DNA of 64,000 nt, taken from positions 12,067-76,066 of the IMG/VR virus record IMGVR_UViG_2563366840_000011. One strand, 5' to 3'. The stretch is from a virus (lineage: Duplodnaviria > Heunggongvirae > Uroviricota > Caudoviricetes). Shown one piece after another: positions 934 through 55,528 of this stretch (position 1 is its first letter; each line of letters starts with the position of its first letter). Below the pieces are notes generated by a model. It was not told the DNA's origin and searched no databases. It saw only the letters and a program-made list of their open reading frames with translations. A program made the translations under genes and the position numbers.

Positions 934-1262
934 CAGTTCACCACCTGTTCAAACTCTGCGCTGAACTCAACACGCAGCATACTGACCCGCGACGACCATT
1001 TTGCGCAGGTCACCTTTATCTGCCGCCACTCATAAGGCGGCGTCCACAGAAAGGCTTTCCAGCCCCCGTGCTCAGCCAGAAACGACTCCAGCGCCGTGGC
1101 CTCCCAACGGGGAACAGAAAGCGTCACGCTGTACGTTTTCAGGTCGGCATTCAGCCCGGCAGGCGCTCGCTGGGAATAGCCATCACCAAAGCGCACTTTC
1201 CTGACGGAAGGGGCCGAAGCCACATCCATACCGGGTTTCACTTTCCAGCGGAAGGTCTTCAT
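933..1262 (-). CDS. M: Tail tip protein M
   Basis: 109-aa ORF MKTFRWKVKPGMDVASAPSVRKVRFGDGYSQ... matches lambda gpM; ATGA overlap with L. Confidence 0.95.
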   Translation of the reverse strand: MKTFRWKVKPGMDVASAPSVRKVRFGDGYSQRAPAGLNADLKTYSVTLSVPRWEATALESFLAEHGGWKAFLWTPPYEWRQIKVTCAKWSSRVSMLRVEFSAEFEQVVN

Positions 1263-3838
1263 CGTCCACCTCCGGAGAACAGACCACCATCGCGCATCTG
1301 TGCCTGAATTTCATCACGGGCACCCTTGCGGGCCATGTCATACACTGCCTTCATCATCTGTGGACCTGGCAGACCATTCGTACCGTCGTTCTGAATCACC
1401 ACGTGATTGTTCTGATTAAAATTAATGCCTTCAGCCCGCCGCATCTGCGCCGGACTTCCGGCACCGCCCACATAACCACCTTCCGCATAGCCCCGCATCA
1501 GGCGGTACAGGTTGCCGACACCAATTCGGCTGGTTGCCTCCTTCGTGAAGACAAATTCACCACGGTGAACAATCCCCGCTGGCTCATATTTGCCGCCGGT
1601 TCCCGTAAATCCTCCGGTTGCAAAATGGAATTTCGCCGCAGCGGCCTGAATGGCTGTACCGCCTGATGCGGATGCGCCGCCACCAACAGCCCCGCCAATG
1701 GCGCTACCGATACTCCCGACAATCCCCACCATTGCCTGCTTAAGCAGAATTTCTGTCATCATGGACAGCACGGAACGGGTGAAGCTGCGCCAGTTCTGCT
1801 CACTGCCGGTCAGCATCGCCGCCATATTCTGCGCAATACCATCAAAGGTCTGCGTGGCTGCACTTTTAACCTGCGACATACTGTCCGTGGCGCTCTCTTC
1901 CCACTCACTCCAGCCGGACCTGAGGCCTGCCATCCAGCTCCCGCGAAGCTGGTCTTCAGCCGCCCAGGTCTTTTTCTGCTCTGACATGACGTTATTCAGC
2001 GCCAGCGAATTATCGCCATACTGTTCCTTCAGGCGCTGTTCTGTGGCTTCCCGCGCTGCCTGCCGGTCAGTAAGCCCCCGGTTTTTCGCCTCAATGGCTG
2101 CCCGTTTTGCCCGTTGTTGCTGTGCGAACTTATCCGCCTGCTGCGCCAGCGCGTTCAGGCGCTCCTGATACGTAACCTTGTCGCCAAGTGCAGCCAGCTG
2201 GCGTTTGTACTCCAGCGTCTCATCTTTATGCGCCAGCAGGGATTTCTCCTGTGCGGACAGCTGGCGACGTTGCGCCGCCTCCTCCAGTACCGCGAACTGA
2301 CTCTCCGCCTTCCACAAATCCCGGCGCTGCTGGCTGATTTTCTCATTTGCTCCGGCATGCTTCTCCAGCGTCCGGAGTTCAGCCTGAAGCGTCAGCAGGG
2401 CAGCATGAGCACTGTCTTCCTGACGATCGCCCGCAGACACTTTCACGCCGGACTGTTTCGGCTTTTTCAGCGTCGCTTCATAATCCTTTTTCGCCGCCGC
2501 CATCAGCGTGTTGTAATCTGCCTGCAGGATTTTCCCGTCTTTCAGTGCCTTGTTCAGTTCTTCCTGACGGGCGGTATATTTCTCCAGCGGCGTCTGCAGG
2601 CGTTCGTAAGCCTTCTGCGCCTCTTCGGTATATTTCAGCCGTGATGCCTCAGACTCGGCCCAGTCCTTTGCTGCCATCTCTCTGGCCTTTTCAAGATCGG
2701 CCTGCAACGTGGCGGCTGAAAGCCCAAGTTGCGCATTCGCTCTGTCCTCCCATGCTCCCCGGAGATTGGCAAGAAATGCTGAGGTTTTACCGCGCCGGTG
2801 GCTTCGGCTCTGATACCACTGCCATTTTTTGTCCGCCTCATCAAAAGCCTTTTCTGCTTTCTCCAGCATTCCCTGGGCAGTGTCCGGGCGACCAATATCC
2901 AGCACCGAATCCCACATGGATTTGAATGCCCGTGCTGTCCTGTCTGCCCAGGTCTCCAGCGTGCCCATGTTCTCTTTCAGGCGGCGGGTCTGGTCATCAA
3001 ACCCTTTCGTTGCGGCCTCGTTCGCCGCCTGCAATGCCCCGGCTTCATCTCCGGAACGCTGCAACTGAGCAACATACGCAATCTGCTCCGCCGTCACGTT
3101 ATGGAACTGACGTGCCATCGCTGTCAGTCCCGACGTCGGGTCTGTGGTCAGCTTCCCGAAGGCTTCAGCGACCTTGTCCACCTCCACGCCGGATGCAGAG
3201 GAGAAACGCGCCACACTCTGGCTGATCGCCTCAAACTGCTCACCACCACGCACACCGGCATTCACCAGCGCCGTCAGTGACTCGCTGGTCTGGTTAAACG
3301 TCAGCCCTGCCGCCTGCCCGGCTCTGGACAGGGCCAGAATACGATCTGCCGTCAGTCCCGCCTGATTGCCGGAAAGGACCAGCGTTTTGTTGAAATCGGA
3401 CAGGGTTGAGTTGCCCTGATACCAGGCATACGCCAGCGCACCGGTCGCCACCGCCAGCGAGGTGGCCCCCACCATCGGCAGGGTGATCGCACCGGCAAGC
3501 CCCCTGAACATGGGGATCATCCCGCCGAAGGAGTCCTTAACCTGACCACCCTGTTGCAGCAGGATCAGCCACGGACTTTGCCCGCCTGCAAGCTGCGTGG
3601 CCACGTCGGTGAACTGTGCAGGCAGCATACGCATGGCGGCTTTATACTGCCCGACGGAAATCCCCGCTTTCTGTGCAGCCAGCGCCTGTCGGCTCAGCGA
3701 CTGTTCAACGACTGCCGCTGTTTTTTTCGCATCAGTTTCCGTACCGGAAAAATGACGCCTGACTCTGGCCATCTGCTCGTCAAATCTGGCCGCATCCAGA
3801 CTTAAATCAACGACCAGATCGCCTACCGGTTCAGCCAT
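1259..3838 (-). CDS. H: Tail tape measure protein H
   Basis: 859-aa ORF MAEPVGDLVVDLSLDAARFDEQMARVRRHF... lambda gpH-like, Ala/Gly-rich C-terminus; between T and M. Confidence 0.95.
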   Translation of the reverse strand: MAEPVGDLVVDLSLDAARFDEQMARVRRHFSGTETDAKKTAAVVEQSLSRQALAAQKAGISVGQYKAAMRMLPAQFTDVATQLAGGQSPWLILLQQGGQVKDSFGGMIPMFRGLAGAITLPMVGATSLAVATGALAYAWYQGNSTLSDFNKTLVLSGNQAGLTADRILALSRAGQAAGLTFNQTSESLTALVNAGVRGGEQFEAISQSVARFSSASGVEVDKVAEAFGKLTTDPTSGLTAMARQFHNVTAEQIAYVAQLQRSGDEAGALQAANEAATKGFDDQTRRLKENMGTLETWADRTARAFKSMWDSVLDIGRPDTAQGMLEKAEKAFDEADKKWQWYQSRSHRRGKTSAFLANLRGAWEDRANAQLGLSAATLQADLEKAREMAAKDWAESEASRLKYTEEAQKAYERLQTPLEKYTARQEELNKALKDGKILQADYNTLMAAAKKDYEATLKKPKQSGVKVSAGDRQEDSAHAALLTLQAELRTLEKHAGANEKISQQRRDLWKAESQFAVLEEAAQRRQLSAQEKSLLAHKDETLEYKRQLAALGDKVTYQERLNALAQQADKFAQQQRAKRAAIEAKNRGLTDRQAAREATEQRLKEQYGDNSLALNNVMSEQKKTWAAEDQLRGSWMAGLRSGWSEWEESATDSMSQVKSAATQTFDGIAQNMAAMLTGSEQNWRSFTRSVLSMMTEILLKQAMVGIVGSIGSAIGGAVGGGASASGGTAIQAAAAKFHFATGGFTGTGGKYEPAGIVHRGEFVFTKEATSRIGVGNLYRLMRGYAEGGYVGGAGSPAQMRRAEGINFNQNNHVVIQNDGTNGLPGPQMMKAVYDMARKGARDEIQAQMRDGGLFSGGGR

Positions 3839-4669
3839 ACCGGACTCCTCCTGCGATCCCTTCTGATACTGTCATCAGCATTACGTCATCCTCCGTCATG
3901 TCCGCCACATCCGGGGAAGCGGGGATAACTTCATTCCCGTCCGGGCCAAAACGAACGCCTCCGGCAAGCCCTGCCGCTTTCTGCATCAGCACATCATCTT
4001 CAGGCTCTTCGTCAGCCTCGCGCCGGTTCAGCAGACTGAAATCCAGCGGATGCATATCCGGATCGCTGAAAAACAGGCTGAGCACGGTGTACGTCAGCCC
4101 GGAAAAGTGCATATCCAGCAGAACATCATGAAAATAATGGGTACTGTAAAAGCGGTGCCAGTCGGCATACTCCGTGGATGACATCCCGGCAAGCATGGCA
4201 CGCCAGTCGGGTCGCCCCATCTCGCGCGCCAGTTTCAGGGCAAAACTCAGCTCACCGTCGAACACTTTCCCGCAGAAACAGGCTCTGCAGGCCCGGCATC
4301 CTCTGCCTGTTCAGGGGCATCATTCACCACAAACTCATACATACCGGACAGCCGGTACACCACGTTTTCAGCATGAGAAATTGCCTCTGTAGGCCAGGTG
4401 GTAAGCACTTCCTGCTCAATCTGTTTAACGGCTTCATTCATGGAAGGCATCTGCGTCTTCTGCGGATGGTTATGCCACAGGGACATCGCCACCACACAAG
4501 CACCGGTTCTGATGGCGTCTTCCACAGTAAACTTCCGGTTGCTGTCTGACTCCGCCTGTTCTGCCTGCCGTTTCATCAGGGCGAGATGCTCAATACGCTG
4601 CAGGGCTGACAGTTCAGAAAGCGTGACGGTCACACCGTTATGTTCAAATGATTCGGTTTTCAGGAACAT
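3831..4669 (-). CDS. T: Tail assembly chaperone G-T fusion (programmed -1 frameshift product)
   Basis: T reading frame (3831-4265) is -1 relative to G and opens at the G GGA AAG heptamer; T ORF ...FDGELSFALKLAREMGRPDWRAMLAG lambda gpT-like. Confidence 0.9.
4247..4669 (-). CDS. G: Tail assembly chaperone G
   Basis: 140-aa ORF MFLKTESFEHNGVTVTLSELSALQRIEHLALMKRQ... matches lambda gpG; ends just after the GGGAAAG slippery site. Confidence 0.95.
   Translation of the reverse strand: MFLKTESFEHNGVTVTLSELSALQRIEHLALMKRQAEQAESDSNRKFTVEDAIRTGACVVAMSLWHNHPQKTQMPSMNEAVKQIEQEVLTTWPTEAISHAENVVYRLSGMYEFVVNDAPEQAEDAGPAEPVSAGKCSTVS
4265..4271 (-). promoter_or_regulatory. -1 ribosomal frameshift slippery heptamer GGGAAAG (G to G-T)
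   Basis: Minus-strand sequence G GGA AAG is in frame with G codons ...A G K C S T V S stop; the -1 frame continues into T. Confidence 0.9.
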
Positions 4670-24994: not shown

Positions 24995-26308
24995 TCAATC
25001 TTTTTTATCGGGATCAGGCTTCTTTTTAGGTAACTTCGGGGGCTTAACTTGCTGATGACTTTGCGTTCGGCGCGTAAGCCAGGGATGGTCAGCTTTAGGT
25101 TTAACATAGTATTTTGAGCGTAAATCAATACGGGCATTATCCACTCGTTCATGGACACTCTTTTCATCATCCAGTGGTATAGGCTCCGGGCCATCAACAT
25201 ACTTTTCCCAGCCCAGCGCTTTCCCGTCATACAGAACGTTAATTTCACCGTCAAAGTTCTCGCATACAGTAACAACCGAATGCCTAAGTCGATATCCCCG
25301 GCCCTCACTGCGTACCTGAAACGCACTGCTTTTGTACTGGAAAGTGAGATTTTTAGACAGAACGCGCTTCGCCTGTAGGCTGAAGATATAACCCAGTTCC
25401 TCTTCAGAATGGTGCACATCAAGATGAGCATTATCAGTAGTACGAGGCGACGTAGCGAACCGGTTGTTATAGGCTTCAATAAAGGTCGGCAACCATGCAT
25501 TTGCTGTTTCAATATCACTGATATTCTGAAGCCGCATTTCTTTGACCAGCCTGTCCTGTAGTGTCTGATTGGCGCGCTCTACCCGCCCTTTTGCCTGCGG
25601 GCTGTTGGCATGGATTGGCTCGATGCCCAGTGTCTTTATCGCACGAGTGAACTGGGTCAGCTCACCTTCCCGCTCTGGGTTATTTACCCTGAATATACTG
25701 TGTCTATCAGAGTAGAGAGCGAGCGGTACGCCATGATCATTAAGGTAACCCCGGAGGGTTTCCATGTAAGCCCGGGTTGTTTCAGCAGGCACAAAACGCA
25801 ACGCCATCAACGCACTGGTGGCATCATCAATGAAAACGATCAGTGTACATCTGGGGCCTCGATTTTCAAACCAGTCATGAGGTGAGCCATCAATCTGGAT
25901 CAGTTCACCGTAAGATGGTCGTCGCATGCGGCGTTGATATATACGGGCAATTTTACGACGGCGTTCACGCCATAACCCCTCTTCTATCATCCACTTTCTG
26001 AGAGTTTCAACGGATAAAGATAAACCGTGTATCTCGCGCAATTTTTCGCACGCAAACGTAGGTCCAAAATCAGCGTAACGGCCTTTGAGGAGTGAAATTA
26101 CTGTTGCTCTGAATTCAGTAGAAAAGGAATTATTAGGACGCTTTCCACGTCGGTGGGAAACCAGACCAGAAGGCCCTTCATTTCTATACCGTTGCACCAG
26201 ACGTTTAACCTGCCGAATAGAAATGCCAATGCGTGCCGCAGCTTGTTCCTGAATAATCTGAAGTCGATGGAGTTCCTTATGACTCATCGTAACAGTCTCT
26301 TTGATCAT
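24995..26308 (-). CDS. DDE (integrase-core type) transposase of an unclassified IS element
   Basis: 437-aa ORF with N-terminal HTH-like region, then IQIDGSPHDWF..., LYSDRHSIF..., ANSPQAKGRVERANQTLQ (DDE/rve-like); element ends not resolved. Confidence 0.65.
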   Translation of the reverse strand: MIKETVTMSHKELHRLQIIQEQAAARIGISIRQVKRLVQRYRNEGPSGLVSHRRGKRPNNSFSTEFRATVISLLKGRYADFGPTFACEKLREIHGLSLSVETLRKWMIEEGLWRERRRKIARIYQRRMRRPSYGELIQIDGSPHDWFENRGPRCTLIVFIDDATSALMALRFVPAETTRAYMETLRGYLNDHGVPLALYSDRHSIFRVNNPEREGELTQFTRAIKTLGIEPIHANSPQAKGRVERANQTLQDRLVKEMRLQNISDIETANAWLPTFIEAYNNRFATSPRTTDNAHLDVHHSEEELGYIFSLQAKRVLSKNLTFQYKSSAFQVRSEGRGYRLRHSVVTVCENFDGEINVLYDGKALGWEKYVDGPEPIPLDDEKSVHERVDNARIDLRSKYYVKPKADHPWLTRRTQSHQQVKPPKLPKKKPDPDKKD

Positions 26309-28127: not shown

Positions 28128-28631
28128 TTATTGATAGTGTTTTATGTTCAGATAATGCCCGATGACTTTGTCATGCAGCTCCACCGATTTTGAGAACGAC
28201 AGCGACTTCCGTCCCAGCCGTGCCAGGTGCTGCCTCAGATTCAGGTTATGCCGCTCAATTCGCTGCGTATATCGCTTGCTGATTACGTGCAGCCTTCCCT
28301 TCAGGCGGGATTCATACAGCGGCCAGCCATCCGTCATCCATATCACCACGTCAAAGGGTGACAGCAGGCTCATAAGACGCCCCAGCGTCGCCATAGTGCG
28401 TTCACCGAATATGTGCGCAACAACCGTCTTCCGGAGCCTGTCATACGCGTAAAACAGCCAGCGCTGGCGCGATTTAGCCCCGACATAGCCCCACTGTTCG
28501 TCCATTTCCGCGCAGACGATGACGTCACTGCCCGGCTGTATGCGCGAGGTTACCGACTGCGGCCTGAGTTTTTTAAATGGCGGAAAATCGTGTTGAGGCC
28601 AACGCCCATAATGCGGGCGGTTGCCCGGCAT
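28128..28631 (-). CDS. insB: IS1 transposase InsB
   Basis: 167-aa [67 protein letters not shown]... Confidence 0.95.
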
Positions 28632-50858: not shown

Positions 50859-51066
50859 AGTAAAAGCCGCCAGAGGGTTGAGCGTGCCGCGCGAAGATAA
50901 TGCGCGCCGCTACATTACTGATGCGGAACCAATTGAGGTGGAGAACACCGCTTATTACCAGCGTCAGGTAATGGCCGGTGATCTGATTATTGTTACCAGC
51001 AGTGACAAGAACACCAAAAGCAAAAGCAGCGAGCCCAGCGCGGAGGTGAACGGTGAGCAGTCCTAA
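50845..51066 (+). CDS. Mu gp38-like small protein
   Basis: ATG at 50845: MSKIKVKAARGLSVPREDNARRYITDAEPIEVENTAYYQRQVMAGDLIIVTSSDKNTKSKSS... Confidence 0.55.
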   Translation: MSKIKVKAARGLSVPREDNARRYITDAEPIEVENTAYYQRQVMAGDLIIVTSSDKNTKSKSSEPSAEVNGEQS

Positions 51067-52471
51067 TATCAGCTTTGACACTATCGGTACGAACCGCAAG
51101 CCGGGTCAGTATATTGAGTTCAACACCCGCCTGGCCGTTCGTACCCTGCCAGGTAACACCCAGAAGGTGCTGATGATTGCGCCAATGCTGGCCTCCGGTT
51201 TGTCTGCACCGCTTGTCATTCAGTCTGTTTTCTCTGATGAAGAAGCTGCGACGTACTTTGGCCGTGGCTCGCTGGCGCATCTGATGGCCACAGCGGCCAT
51301 CGGTGCCTACCCCTATCTGCAGCTGCAGATCGTCGGGGTCAGCGATGCGGCCACTGCAACAGCCGCGACGGGCAAAATCGCCCTGACCGGCACAGCATCT
51401 TCCGGCGGGAAGCTGAGCGTGACCATTAATGGTACCCGTATTGATGTCGGTATTTCGGCAGCAGATACGGCGGAGACCATTGCGGCAGCGCTGACGGAAC
51501 TGATTACCCAGAAAGACGGGTTGCCAGTGACGGCAACAGCAAACGCGGGGGAAGTGACCCTGACCTGCCGCCATAAAGGGGCGGTTGGTAACGACATTAT
51601 TGTCTCTTCCGGCGTAACGGCAGCGGGTATCACAGCGGCGACCACCACGCTTGCAGGCGGCAATGTTGATCCGGATATTACGCCAGCGCTGGCAGCGGCG
51701 TTCTCAGCAGGTCATAACATTGTTGTTTGTCCGTTCTCCACCCAGGAGGCGATGACGGCGCTGCGTAACCATCTGACAAACGTCAGCAATGCGATGGAAC
51801 AGCGCGGCGCAATCGGTGTGGGTGGGTGGCGCAAGTCGCTTTCCACCGGCATTGCACTGGCAGCTTCACTTAATGACGGACGTATCACGCTGGGCTGGCA
51901 TAGCGGTTCGGTAAAAACACCGGCGCAGATCGCCGCTGCCTATGCTGCTGTTATCGCCAGTGAAGAGGACCCGGCACGCCCGCTGAACACCCTTGCGATG
52001 AGCACGCTGGACGTGACTGCAGTAGAGAGTCAGCCAGGGCGAACTGAGCAGGAGAACGCCCTGCGGAATGGTCTTACGCCGTTTGAGATTGGCCCCGGTG
52101 ACAAAGTGCAAATCGTTCGCGCGATCAGCACCTACACCAAAAACGCCCAGGGCGTGGATGATGTGGCGCTGCTGGATATCACCACCATCCGAACGCTGGA
52201 CTATGTGCGCAAGGCCTGCCGTGAACGCATCGCTCTGCGATTCCCGCGCGACAAGCTCAGCTCAAGAACACCTCCGAAGGTGCGCAGTGAACTGCTTGAT
52301 GTGCTTTACAAGCTGGAGGAGCTGGAGATTGTCGAGGAGGTGGATGCCAACAAAAACGGACTTATTGTAGAGCGCGATCTGCAGGATGTTAACCAGCTGA
52401 ACGGTCGCATCCCTGCGGATGTTGTGAATGGCCTGCACGTCTTTGCCGGTCGAATTGATTTGCTGCTCTGA
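51053..52471 (+). CDS. Tail sheath protein (Mu L-like)
   Basis: GTG start after GGAGG; 472-aa ORF MSSPNISFDTIGTNRKPGQYIEFNTRLAVRTLPGNTQKVLMIAPMLASG... Confidence 0.85.
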   Translation: MSSPNISFDTIGTNRKPGQYIEFNTRLAVRTLPGNTQKVLMIAPMLASGLSAPLVIQSVFSDEEAATYFGRGSLAHLMATAAIGAYPYLQLQIVGVSDAATATAATGKIALTGTASSGGKLSVTINGTRIDVGISAADTAETIAAALTELITQKDGLPVTATANAGEVTLTCRHKGAVGNDIIVSSGVTAAGITAATTTLAGGNVDPDITPALAAAFSAGHNIVVCPFSTQEAMTALRNHLTNVSNAMEQRGAIGVGGWRKSLSTGIALAASLNDGRITLGWHSGSVKTPAQIAAAYAAVIASEEDPARPLNTLAMSTLDVTAVESQPGRTEQENALRNGLTPFEIGPGDKVQIVRAISTYTKNAQGVDDVALLDITTIRTLDYVRKACRERIALRFPRDKLSSRTPPKVRSELLDVLYKLEELEIVEEVDANKNGLIVERDLQDVNQLNGRIPADVVNGLHVFAGRIDLLL

Positions 52472-52859: not shown

Positions 52860-53252
52860 ATGGAAAAGCAGCAACTTTTATATGGCGTTAAATGCGGTGA
52901 TAAAGTCCATTTTGACTTTGCCGTCAGGCTGCCTGTGGTGAGCGATACCATTGAAGCGCTGCGGGCAACCGATGAAGCCTGCGGCACTACCGAAGGCGCA
53001 GCCGCAAACATGTATTACCGTGTTGCGGTAATGGCGTGTGCGATTACTGCCCTCGGAGATGTGCCAAAGGAAGAAATCACGGCGGAGCTGCTCCTTAACG
53101 AGCTGAATGATGATGATTTCGATCTCATCGATGCTCAGATTGAAGCCATTAAAAAAAAGCGGATGGATTTGAACAAAAGCTCACCGGCTACCGAACCCTC
53201 GTCCTCGCCCTCGGACGATACGGGATCAGTGAACAACAAATCGGAAGCATGA
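52860..53252 (+). CDS. Tail assembly chaperone (short, in-frame product)
   Basis: 130-aa ORF immediately upstream of the tape measure gene; acidic C-terminal region. Confidence 0.7.
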   Translation: MEKQQLLYGVKCGDKVHFDFAVRLPVVSDTIEALRATDEACGTTEGAAANMYYRVAVMACAITALGDVPKEEITAELLLNELNDDDFDLIDAQIEAIKKKRMDLNKSSPATEPSSSPSDDTGSVNNKSEA

Positions 53253-53386
53253 CCCGAACGGAACTCGACGGCTACACCGAAGCGCTTGCCCGGTTACATG
53301 GAAAGAAAACCGGGCAAACCACCACCCGCACAACCCGCACTGTCAAATCGCAACGCCGGAAGAAAGTCGGCAAACGGAGATAGTCC
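52860..53386 (+). CDS. Tail assembly chaperone, predicted -1 frameshift extended product
   Basis: The -1 frame is open from the A AAA AAG heptamer (53153-53159) to TAG at 53384-53386, adding ...ADGFEQKLTGYRTLVLALGRYGISEQQIGSMTRTELDGYTEALARLHGKKTGQ... and ending 1 nt before the tape measure start. Confidence 0.6.
53153..53159 (+). promoter_or_regulatory. Candidate -1 ribosomal frameshift slippery heptamer A AAA AAG
   Basis: In-frame codons AAA AAG (K K) within an 8-A run inside the chaperone gene; the -1 frame has no stop for 227 nt. Confidence 0.6.
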
Positions 53387-55528
53387 ATGGCGCGTAACTT
53401 ACAACTGGCGCTGCAGCTGCTTGCCCGTGATACCGGCTCCAAAGTGCTTAAACAGGCACTGCAGGGCATCAGCCGGGATACCAAAGCGGCGCAAAAAACC
53501 GATGATGAGCTGGCGAAATCCCGTCAGCAGAACTCGACCACAGCGATTCGTGCCTCCCGTTCTCTGATTGAGGAATACCGTCGCGCCAGTTCGGCGCGAG
53601 CAACTCTTGGCATTCGCTCAGAGCGCGAAATACAGCGCGAAATACAGCAGACCATGGCGGCCTATAATCGCCTTACCCGCACAGGTATGCTGTCCGCAAA
53701 TGAGCAGAACCGGGCTTTCAGGGCCATGACTGACAGGGTCAAAGCGCTGCGAACTGAGCTTGGCGGCGTCAATGACTCAATGACGCGCATGCAGCGATTC
53801 CGTGCTGCAGGTTCAACCGTGGCAGCAGTAGCCGGTGGGTTAACTGCTGCGGGTATGATTATAAAAGACCCGGTTCAGCGTCAGATGGCTTACGAACGGC
53901 GTAATGCTGAGATTGCAAATACCGCTTATAACAATCTCTCCGCACCAGACCGTATTAAGAAAATACCTGAGATCAATAATGCAATCCGTGGGGCTGTACG
54001 TTATGGCGGTGGAACGCCAGAGGCCGCACAGGAAACCATTAATTCACTTTTCGCAGGTGGTCTTGATGATAAAACGGCATTAAAAATATTGCCTAATATT
54101 ACTCGTTACGCTACTGCTTCAGGCGCAAATCCGAATGACCTTGCGCGTATTGCTATTGGTGCAATTAAGAACTTTGATATAAAGGCTGAGGATTTACCAG
54201 CGGTATTTGATAAAACCATCAGGTCTGGTGAGAACGGTAAATATGAACTCGCTGATATGGCTGGCTCATTACCATTAACCATGACAAAAGCAAACTCTGT
54301 AGGTATGTCAGGGTTAAAAGATTTGGATGTCATTCTCGCGATGTTACAGGCTAACGCTGAAACAGCAGGTGATAATAGCGCTGCATCAACAAACGTTAAT
54401 AACTTGCTTGATAAATACACCAGTGCTGACACTCAGAATGCGTTAAAAAATAAAAGATTCAGGACTAAAGACGGGAGGATGCTTGCCTATGCTGATTATA
54501 TGGCTGACCAGCGACTTTCAGGAGTGAATACTTCTGATGCATTCACTAATGCTGTATCAGGTATTGTTTCAGCAGACCCACGAGTTAAGAAATTACGGGC
54601 TCAGGCTACCAAATTCAAAGGGACGGACAAGGAGAAAGACATTCTTGCCTCACTGGATATTATTGTTTCCTCCATTACGTCAAAAATAGTTGCTGACCAG
54701 CAGGCCAGTACTGCACTAAAAACAAGCATAATGAAAAAAGACTTCATTAAGGAGCAAATTTCAGGAACACGTGATTCTGTCGGTGCTGGTGCAGCCTCAT
54801 ATGAGGTTATGTCGTCAACAAATGATTTTAAGTCACAACAATTTGAGTCAGAGAAAATGTTTTCTGAACAGGACGCAATGAAACCTGTTGCCGATTTATA
54901 CGGTGATTTGACGTCAAAACTCACCGATTACGCTAAAGAATATCCTGAGCTAACCACGGCTATTTCTGGTGCCACTACTGGCATTAAAGCCATGACAGCG
55001 GCTGCGGTAGCTTTTGCCGGGCTCAACTTTCTGACGGGCGGTGGAATAAAAATGCCAGGCTCTCCTGGAGGTGGAGTGCCACCTGCAGGAGGATCTGCTC
55101 TGGGGCGTGCATGGTCCGTTATTCGTGGCGGAGCTGGCAAGATATTAGCTCCACTGGCTCTTTATCAGGGTATGCAGGATGCCCCACTCGTTCACGTTGA
55201 GCGAGGTGATTCAAATGCACGTTCGCGCCTTAAGGTTGACAATTATTCAAGTCAATCAGAGCGAATGTTGGATGCTGTTAAAGCCCGCCCAGGATTGCTG
55301 GATGCCGTGGATGAGATCAAATCATGGTGGAGTTCTCCGGCCACAGTGGGGCAAAACACACCAGCCACAACAGGCGTACCGTCTTATCTGTTGCCTCAGC
55401 AGCAACAAAAGCCTCAGCCAGTAAACATCACAACTAAAGTCATGCTCGATGAGCGTCAGATTGCCGAGGCCGTCAATCAGTATAATGGCGATCAATCCGT
55501 TCGCGGCTCAACAGGAGGTCCACAGTGA
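53387..55528 (+). CDS. Tail tape measure protein
   Basis: 713-aa ORF after the chaperone genes; central region more AT-rich; C-terminus Gly-rich. Confidence 0.85.
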   Translation: MARNLQLALQLLARDTGSKVLKQALQGISRDTKAAQKTDDELAKSRQQNSTTAIRASRSLIEEYRRASSARATLGIRSEREIQREIQQTMAAYNRLTRTGMLSANEQNRAFRAMTDRVKALRTELGGVNDSMTRMQRFRAAGSTVAAVAGGLTAAGMIIKDPVQRQMAYERRNAEIANTAYNNLSAPDRIKKIPEINNAIRGAVRYGGGTPEAAQETINSLFAGGLDDKTALKILPNITRYATASGANPNDLARIAIGAIKNFDIKAEDLPAVFDKTIRSGENGKYELADMAGSLPLTMTKANSVGMSGLKDLDVILAMLQANAETAGDNSAASTNVNNLLDKYTSADTQNALKNKRFRTKDGRMLAYADYMADQRLSGVNTSDAFTNAVSGIVSADPRVKKLRAQATKFKGTDKEKDILASLDIIVSSITSKIVADQQASTALKTSIMKKDFIKEQISGTRDSVGAGAASYEVMSSTNDFKSQQFESEKMFSEQDAMKPVADLYGDLTSKLTDYAKEYPELTTAISGATTGIKAMTAAAVAFAGLNFLTGGGIKMPGSPGGGVPPAGGSALGRAWSVIRGGAGKILAPLALYQGMQDAPLVHVERGDSNARSRLKVDNYSSQSERMLDAVKARPGLLDAVDEIKSWWSSPATVGQNTPATTGVPSYLLPQQQQKPQPVNITTKVMLDERQIAEAVNQYNGDQSVRGSTGGPQ

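Follow-up and report, generated by a model that had tools for sequence, protein, structure and literature searches.

The window, by which we mean the whole 64,000-nt stretch of DNA that was analysed, contains a set of rightwards transcribed tail genes, whose coordinates are listed in Table 1 together with those of the other features described below. The gene order is sheath, tube, chaperone and tape measure, with the TAA of the tail tube gene abutting the ATG of the chaperone gene at 52860, and a gene for a DNA circularisation protein N of the Mu N type is also located downstream of the chaperone gene. Further upstream are genes for a Mu-type transposase A (with matches to Mu-transpos_C, HTH_Tnp_Mu_1 and rve) and a B-like AAA protein, and genes related to DUF1834 and gp36 are found in the same order in a close relative, E. 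coli FDAARGOS_1303. Judged by this gene content, the region is the tail module of a Mu-like prophage. An earlier note on this DNA had called the gene at 52860 a Mu-like tail assembly chaperone gene. The first part of that description agrees with the transposase A and B, circularisation protein N, DUF1834 and gp36-like genes and with a fold match to Mu FS-gp41 (see below), and the chaperone identity is upheld by the match to PHROG 508 (1e-39) and by the location between the tube and tape measure genes.

Table 1. Coordinates of the tail genes, the slippery site and related features in the window.
Feature	Coordinates	Strand	Match or remark
Tail sheath gene	51053-52471	+	Pfam Phage_sheath_1 and 1C
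Tail tube gene, 124 aa	52485-52859	+	PHROG 185 tail tube protein, 4.4e-33
Tail assembly chaperone, 0 frame, short form, 130 aa	52860-53252	+	PHROG 508, 1.2e-39; analogous to gpG in lambda, gpE in P2 and gp41 in Mu
Predicted fusion, 174 aa	52860-53383	+	First 100 residues read in the 0 frame, the remainder (101-174) in the -1 frame
TAA in the -1 frame	53150-53152	+	Shuts the -1 frame directly 5' of the heptamer
A8 run enclosing the heptamer	53151-53158	+	Possible secondary RNA polymerase slippage site
Slippery heptamer A AAA AAG	53153-53159	+	In frame in the ORF 52860-53252
-1 frame extension, 74 codons plus TAG, 225 nt	53159-53383	+	Analogous to the T domain in lambda, E' in P2 and the FS extension in Mu
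ATGA	53249-53252	+	-1-frame Met codon overlapping the 0-frame TGA; gene callers begin a 44-aa ORF here
GGAG Shine-Dalgarno element of the tape measure gene	53376-53379	+	Within the end of the extension, 7 nt 5' of the ATG
Tape measure gene, 713 aa	53387-55528	+	Pfam PhageMin_Tail, 5e-16; expected client of the chaperone
Lambda gpG-family gene	4669..4247	-	Phage_TAC_2; G GGA AAG in frame at 4271-4265
Phage_tail_T ORF	4265..3831	-	Follows the gpG gene
Lambda-type tape measure gene	3838..1259	-	Follows the Phage_tail_T ORF

Within the chaperone gene, the three codons AAA (53151-53), AAA (53154-56) and AAG (57-59) encode Lys98-100 (...IEAIKKKRMDL...), and A AAA AAG is the sole in-frame heptamer of the form X XXY YYZ in the gene. 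The -1 frame is open from 53153 exactly, and the +1 frame is shut at 53172, such that the frame reaching the tape measure gene is -1; a 3-nt spacer, TCC, separates its TAG from the tape measure ATG at 53387. The codon phase bears out the placing of the heptamer in the chaperone frame by the earlier note. That note further described the -1 frame as running for 227 nt to a stop at 53384-53386 immediately before the tape measure start; the frame is indeed open from the heptamer to the tape measure gene, but the stop is the TAG at 53381-53383, the length is 225 nt counted from 53159, and the spacer keeps the two reading frames from immediately adjoining. CGGAGATAA or GGGAGATAA is kept in most relatives at the position of the tape measure Shine-Dalgarno element. 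The heptamer is enclosed in a run of eight As, and slippage-prone homopolymer runs usually have 9 or more. The A8G motif, AAAAAAAAG, occurs once in the 64-kb window versus 1.19 occurrences expected from shuffles; the rarity of the motif is no evidence, and the case is carried by its position, its phase and its conservation across relatives.

Conservation was followed in two sets of relatives. The first comprises 25 distinct sequences, i.e. the window and 24 loci from IMG/VR, GTDB genomes, an E. coli genome and a Klebsiella phage, representing Escherichia, Klebsiella, Citrobacter, Kosakonia, Trabulsiella, Pectobacterium, Serratia, Yersinia, Erwinia and Symbiopectobacterium, with protein identities to the window of 51% to 97%. 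The second and wider set adds 60 further distinct scorable loci, from prophages of Enterobacterales and Pasteurellaceae. The only similar deposited phage found in a search of a phage collection is Klebsiella ST405-OXA48phi1.1, the region is present in one of 5426 complete E. coli genomes, and the exact chaperone protein was found in 61 blocks of an assembly collection.

Several patterns emerge from these comparisons. Every sequence of the first set has T-A8-G-C at identical codon positions (25/25), and all 60 loci of the second have an in-frame A AAA AAG followed by a -1 extension of 68 aa or more. Among the 99 ungapped codon columns of the first set only four have an invariant third position, and these lie in the consecutive codons NNT AAA AAA AAG; likewise, of the 21 degenerate columns that are invariant in amino acid, just three use a single codon, namely those of Lys98-100. 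In the rest of the chaperone gene Lys is encoded by both AAA (54 occurrences) and AAG (42). None of the 53 enterobacterial-type loci in the second set lacks the A8 run, and Lys98 is never swapped for Arg in loci of this type. Mu-like phages of the Pasteurellaceae (Mannheimia phage 3927AP2 and its relatives) have CGA or AGA AAA AAG CGG at the same place, and thus contain the heptamer with A6G only.

The base to the 5' side of the run was considered as a required element, given that T is held throughout the first set; it is T in 48 of the 53 A8 loci of the second set and C in a subclade of five, however, and is a strong preference only. This T spans codons for four amino acids (ATT, CTT, GCT and GTT) and creates the TAA in the -1 frame. 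It may influence slippage through the 5' context or the E site.

The selection acting on each frame was estimated as pooled Nei-Gojobori dN/dS for the 25 sequences of the first set. The N-terminal domain (100 aa, 0 frame) has a dN/dS of 0.14 and the -1 extension as a whole 0.25, and the 0-frame tail after KKK has 1.43. Over the 30 codons from the heptamer to the ATG at 53249, dN/dS is 0.29 in the -1 frame, which contains a stop in none of the 25 sequences, as against 1.53 in the 0 frame (a stop in 12/25) and 1.27 in the +1 frame (18/25), and in these same codons the third positions of the -1 frame have roughly double the entropy of the first and second. ATG, GTG and TTG are absent from the -1 frame of every one of the 25 sequences from the heptamer up to extension residue 31, an invariant ATG (25/25) that is the first possible start in this frame. 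A conserved frame that lacks a start and is joined to the upstream gene at a conserved heptamer is a signature of programmed recoding.

The extension itself is 68-85 aa long in the first set, with the consensus ...GYRTLVLALGRYGISEQQIGxMTRxELDGYxxALARLHGKK...VKSxRRKK, and its end falls from -1 to +3 nt relative to the tape measure start in the 20 of 25 sequences where that start could be located. The Mannheimia -1 extension is homologous to that of the window (27% identity, E=5e-6), and this homology is at least as clear as that between the two N-terminal domains (24% identity, E=0.002). A homology search with the extension alone recovered 11 proteins, mostly a miscalled ORF of 41-44 aa. Four tryptic peptides of the -1 frame lie to the 5' side of the ATG at 53249 (ADGFEQK, LTGYR, TLVLALGR and YGISEQQIGSMTR) and could be obtained via recoding only.

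The C-terminal tail of the short form (53160-53252) is Ser/Pro-rich and has a variable stop, giving proteins of 113-131 aa. With a dN/dS of about 1.4-1.5, it has the appearance of a side effect of the -1 frame that overlaps it, and not of a constrained part of the chaperone. The ATGA is invariant in all 25 sequences, yet the 0 frame ends earlier in 12 of them. Only Thr (ACN) or Ser (AGY) follows the -1-frame Met, so that the A of ATGA is kept. The ATGA may be retained as a backstop terminator of the 0 frame, which would otherwise be open to 53567.

The structure of the fusion was modelled with AlphaFold2 from the database protein P0052, which encodes the fusion in frame. The N-terminal domain (residues 1-100) is modelled with a pLDDT of 85-92, and it is followed by a long helix across the junction, two helices in the extension (pLDDT 59-74) and a disordered, basic C-terminal tail. 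The best fold match in BFVD is the Mu 'Probable tail assembly protein FS-gp41' (UniProt P0DJY4; E=1.8e-4, probability 1.00, 168 columns), and the next matches include several annotated tail assembly chaperones. Foldseek against the PDB gave nothing significant, with a suggestive match to the HK97 tail assembly chaperone 2ob9 (probability 0.23), and a PDB sequence search with the family profile was empty. At the sequence level, the Pfam family Gp41_Mu (PF23746) is matched with E=2.3e-4 and 21.7 bits, under its gathering cutoff of 27; eight of 21 relatives match it with E<0.01, the best at 3.7e-5, and hhalign against Mu gp41 gives E=0.04. This profile evidence points to remote homology only between the window chaperone and Mu gp41, with the two proteins occupying the same gene slot in Mu-type genomes.

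We consider it likely that this tail assembly chaperone gene is subject to a programmed -1 ribosomal frameshift, a reading which the earlier note had put forward and for which the conservation of the heptamer and the purifying selection on the -1 frame now argue. Most ribosomes would read the gene in frame to 53252 and produce the 130-aa chaperone, and a small fraction would slip back one base with tRNA-Lys on AAA in the P site and on AAG in the A site at 53153-59. The slipped tRNAs would re-pair on AAA AAA, and translation would resume at GCG 53159 and stop at TAG 53381-83, yielding a 174-aa fusion that has its first 100 residues in common with the short form. If the two proteins behave as gpG and gpGT do in lambda, the N-terminal domain common to both would coat the tape measure protein and the -1-encoded domain, with its helices and basic tail, would recruit the tail tube protein, such that the frequency of slipping would set the ratio of short to long forms. 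Both the occurrence of slippage and its level are what we infer from the features of the site.

Elements that would stimulate the shift were looked for and none was found. The 108-nt segment 53153-53260 folds no better than shuffled sequences (z = -0.46), and RNAalifold on 11 diverse relatives reports a weak helix of seven pairs (CCG/CCGA...TCGG/CGG) that starts about 25 nt downstream, is invariant and shows no covariation. The minimum free energy hairpin directly 3' of the heptamer is also without covariation, with 69.7% of cells paired versus 69.6% in column shuffles. A downstream stimulatory RNA was rejected on these grounds. Inspection of 53130-53152 by eye for an element resembling a Shine-Dalgarno sequence found no GGAG, GAGG or AGGA, and neither the hairpin or pseudoknot 5-9 nt from the heptamer nor the Shine-Dalgarno-like element 6-17 nt upstream of it that mark dnaX/IS911-type sites was detected. 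Because no stimulator was found, the efficiency of frameshifting could be low. In E. coli, A_AAA_AAG ranks with the most efficient motifs, giving about 0.3% frameshifting without stimulators and up to about 3.7% depending on the 3' context (Sharma et al., PMC4066793), and from these figures a shift of a low percentage is probably to be expected at 53153-53159. The slip would probably rest on the intrinsic shiftiness of the enterobacterial tRNA-Lys(UUU) on AAG together with the immediate sequence context.

Other routes to a product of the -1 frame have to be weighed against the ribosomal shift. RNA polymerase could add one A in the A8 run, and the resulting A9 transcripts would encode the 174-aa fusion without any shift by the ribosome; as the protein is identical, this is indistinguishable in silico from a ribosomal shift. 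It is favoured by the A8 run and the absence of Arg at position 98 throughout the enterobacterial-type loci, and by the A9 genomic variants, which encode exactly the predicted fusion; moreover, A runs with n>7 are among programmed transcriptional realignment sites (PMC3711429), and productive slippage on eight As has been suggested in some bacteria (PMC1088944), although selection against slippage-prone runs is evident from 9 nt in many bacterial genomes (PMC1088944). However, it is the phased A AAA AAG and not the run that is shared family-wide, as the Pasteurellaceae have A6G with a homologous -1 extension, and both the invariant final G and the fixed phase matter for tRNA re-pairing but not for the polymerase. 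As the main route we regard polymerase slippage as unlikely, but it may be a contributor, above all in the enterobacterial clade.

If 53249-53383 were a 44-aa gene in its own right, with ribosomes terminating and reinitiating at the ATGA overlap, no recoding would take place, and this reading accords with the invariance of the ATGA, with the annotation of the small ORF by gene callers and in one phage record, and with PHROG 11893, a family of unknown function that matches just the 44 aa from the ATG at 53249. It does not explain why the 30 codons of the -1 frame to the 5' side of this ATG are as constrained as those to its 3' side, which would be unexplained unless they are translated. Coupling at the ATGA also cannot be general, given that the 0 frame ends up to about 50 nt upstream of it in 12 of the 25 sequences, and in the Pasteurellaceae the annotated small ORF starts elsewhere, with homology that reaches upstream of that start. 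We consider such a gene very improbable as the explanation. A chance pairing of a lysine run with an open -1 frame, without function, has in its favour that A8G is expected about once per 64 kb and that an open frame of 74 codons is probably not very rare at such a composition, but it is scarcely credible, and effectively refuted, in the face of conservation across at least 60 distinct loci, of selection that acts on the nucleotides of the site, and of purifying selection in the -1 frame.

Programmed ribosomal frameshifting at this position has ample precedent. Frameshifts of the G/GT type are conserved in long-tailed dsDNA phages, as stated in PMC5009743 and PMC2628397 with reference to Xu et al. 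2004, and tail-chaperone frameshifts are textbook cases (Levin 1993; Xu 2004, 2013, 2014; as reviewed in PMC5009743). The characters of this type are found in the window, namely overlapping ORFs between the tube and tape measure genes, a phased and conserved heptamer, a coding -1 frame without a start, and chaperone homology and fold. The arrangement resembles that of lambda gpG/gpGT in that a pair of overlapping ORFs separates the tape measure gene from the major tail or tube gene, an X XXA AAG heptamer (G GGA AAG in lambda) is read by tRNA-Lys, no structured stimulator was found, as is reported for lambda, and the extension finishes at the tape measure gene; virions are expected to contain neither product (PMC5009743). 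It differs in that there is no sequence similarity, with lambda G and T belonging to Pfam Phage_TAC_2 and Phage_tail_T, neither of which is matched by the window protein, in the heptamer itself (A AAA AAG), and in the contractile tail, in which the client of the extension would be the tube protein under the sheath. Phage P2 is also a myovirus, in which the sheath and tube genes are followed by a chaperone gene with a -1 frameshift and then by the tape measure gene. As is predicted for the window gene, it has a short form (gpE) and an extended form (gpE+E') generated by a -1 shift (PMC5009743), but the slippery sequence and the protein family are different; the P2 frameshift is reported to be 2- to 3-fold more efficient than that of lambda (PMC5009743). 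E. coli dnaX has the identical A AAA AAG and relies on the same shiftiness of tRNA-Lys(UUU), but has an upstream Shine-Dalgarno-like element and a downstream hairpin with a frequency of about 50% (PMC3711429), whereas no stimulator was detected at the window site; the dnaX shift also truncates the protein, whereas that in the window would extend it.

Mu uses -2 frameshifting, equivalent to +1, according to PMC5009743 and PMC2628397, both of which cite Xu et al. 2004 on this point, whereas the site in the window is a canonical -1 site on A AAA AAG. In the Mu sequence (locus L029) the frame running from gene 41 to the tape measure gene has an offset of +1 and opens at position 2950 of the locus, by CGG GGG CGA, in agreement with these papers. 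Going by sequence, the window site works like lambda G/GT or P2 E/E+E' and not like Mu. Distant homologues in one gene slot would thus reach the second frame by -2 in Mu and by -1 in the clade of the window, a contrast which illustrates that the two-product arrangement is conserved and the mechanism is not.

In the RefSeq (PGAP) and GenBank records the region is annotated as one or two 'hypothetical proteins' with no ribosomal slippage noted. The site is a previously unannotated and well-supported case of a device that is common in long-tailed phages. The long form of the chaperone is unannotated across a widespread clade of Mu-like prophages of Enterobacterales and Pasteurellaceae, and annotation of the fusion would correct these records.

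Variation in the length of the A run was observed in a few sequences. An A9 allele encoding the 174-aa fusion in frame is represented by the database protein P0052 (three contigs) and by L009/L038 (IMG/VR UViG_2571042420). A further A9 locus, L030 (Logan ERR14294365), differs from the A8 loci L040 and L041 by one extra A as the sole difference over 1000 nt, which may reflect either erroneous sequencing or an indel of very recent origin, and the A9 alleles are not counted here as evidence for the frameshift. The A9 variants (P0052, L009 and L030) have the identical fusion architecture in frame. An A7 variant is present in a Symbiopectobacterium MAG (L027). All of these length variants may be homopolymer sequencing errors or else recent alleles produced by replication slippage. 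It is conceivable, but we think improbable, that the enterobacterial A8 tract works at two levels, with RNA polymerase and ribosomal slippage both feeding the long form and replication slippage (A8/A9/A7) flipping the ratio of short to long forms or inactivating tail assembly; if so, the A8 tract would be a mutational switch on the tail competence of the prophage.

Finally, we note that a lambdoid prophage is also present in the window and has a tail-chaperone frameshift site of its own, unrelated to that of the Mu-like prophage. The lambda G/G-T site that the earlier note had reported at 4265-4271 is present as G GGA AAG on the minus strand, in a gene of the lambda gpG family (Table 1). An IS1 copy (28128-28631, minus strand; DDE_Tnp_IS1, 1e-77) contains the A AAA AAC motif of the insAB' -1 shift at 28574-28568 and provides a third -1 slippery site, and an IS-like transposase ORF (24995-26308, minus strand) is located between the lambdoid and Mu-like elements.
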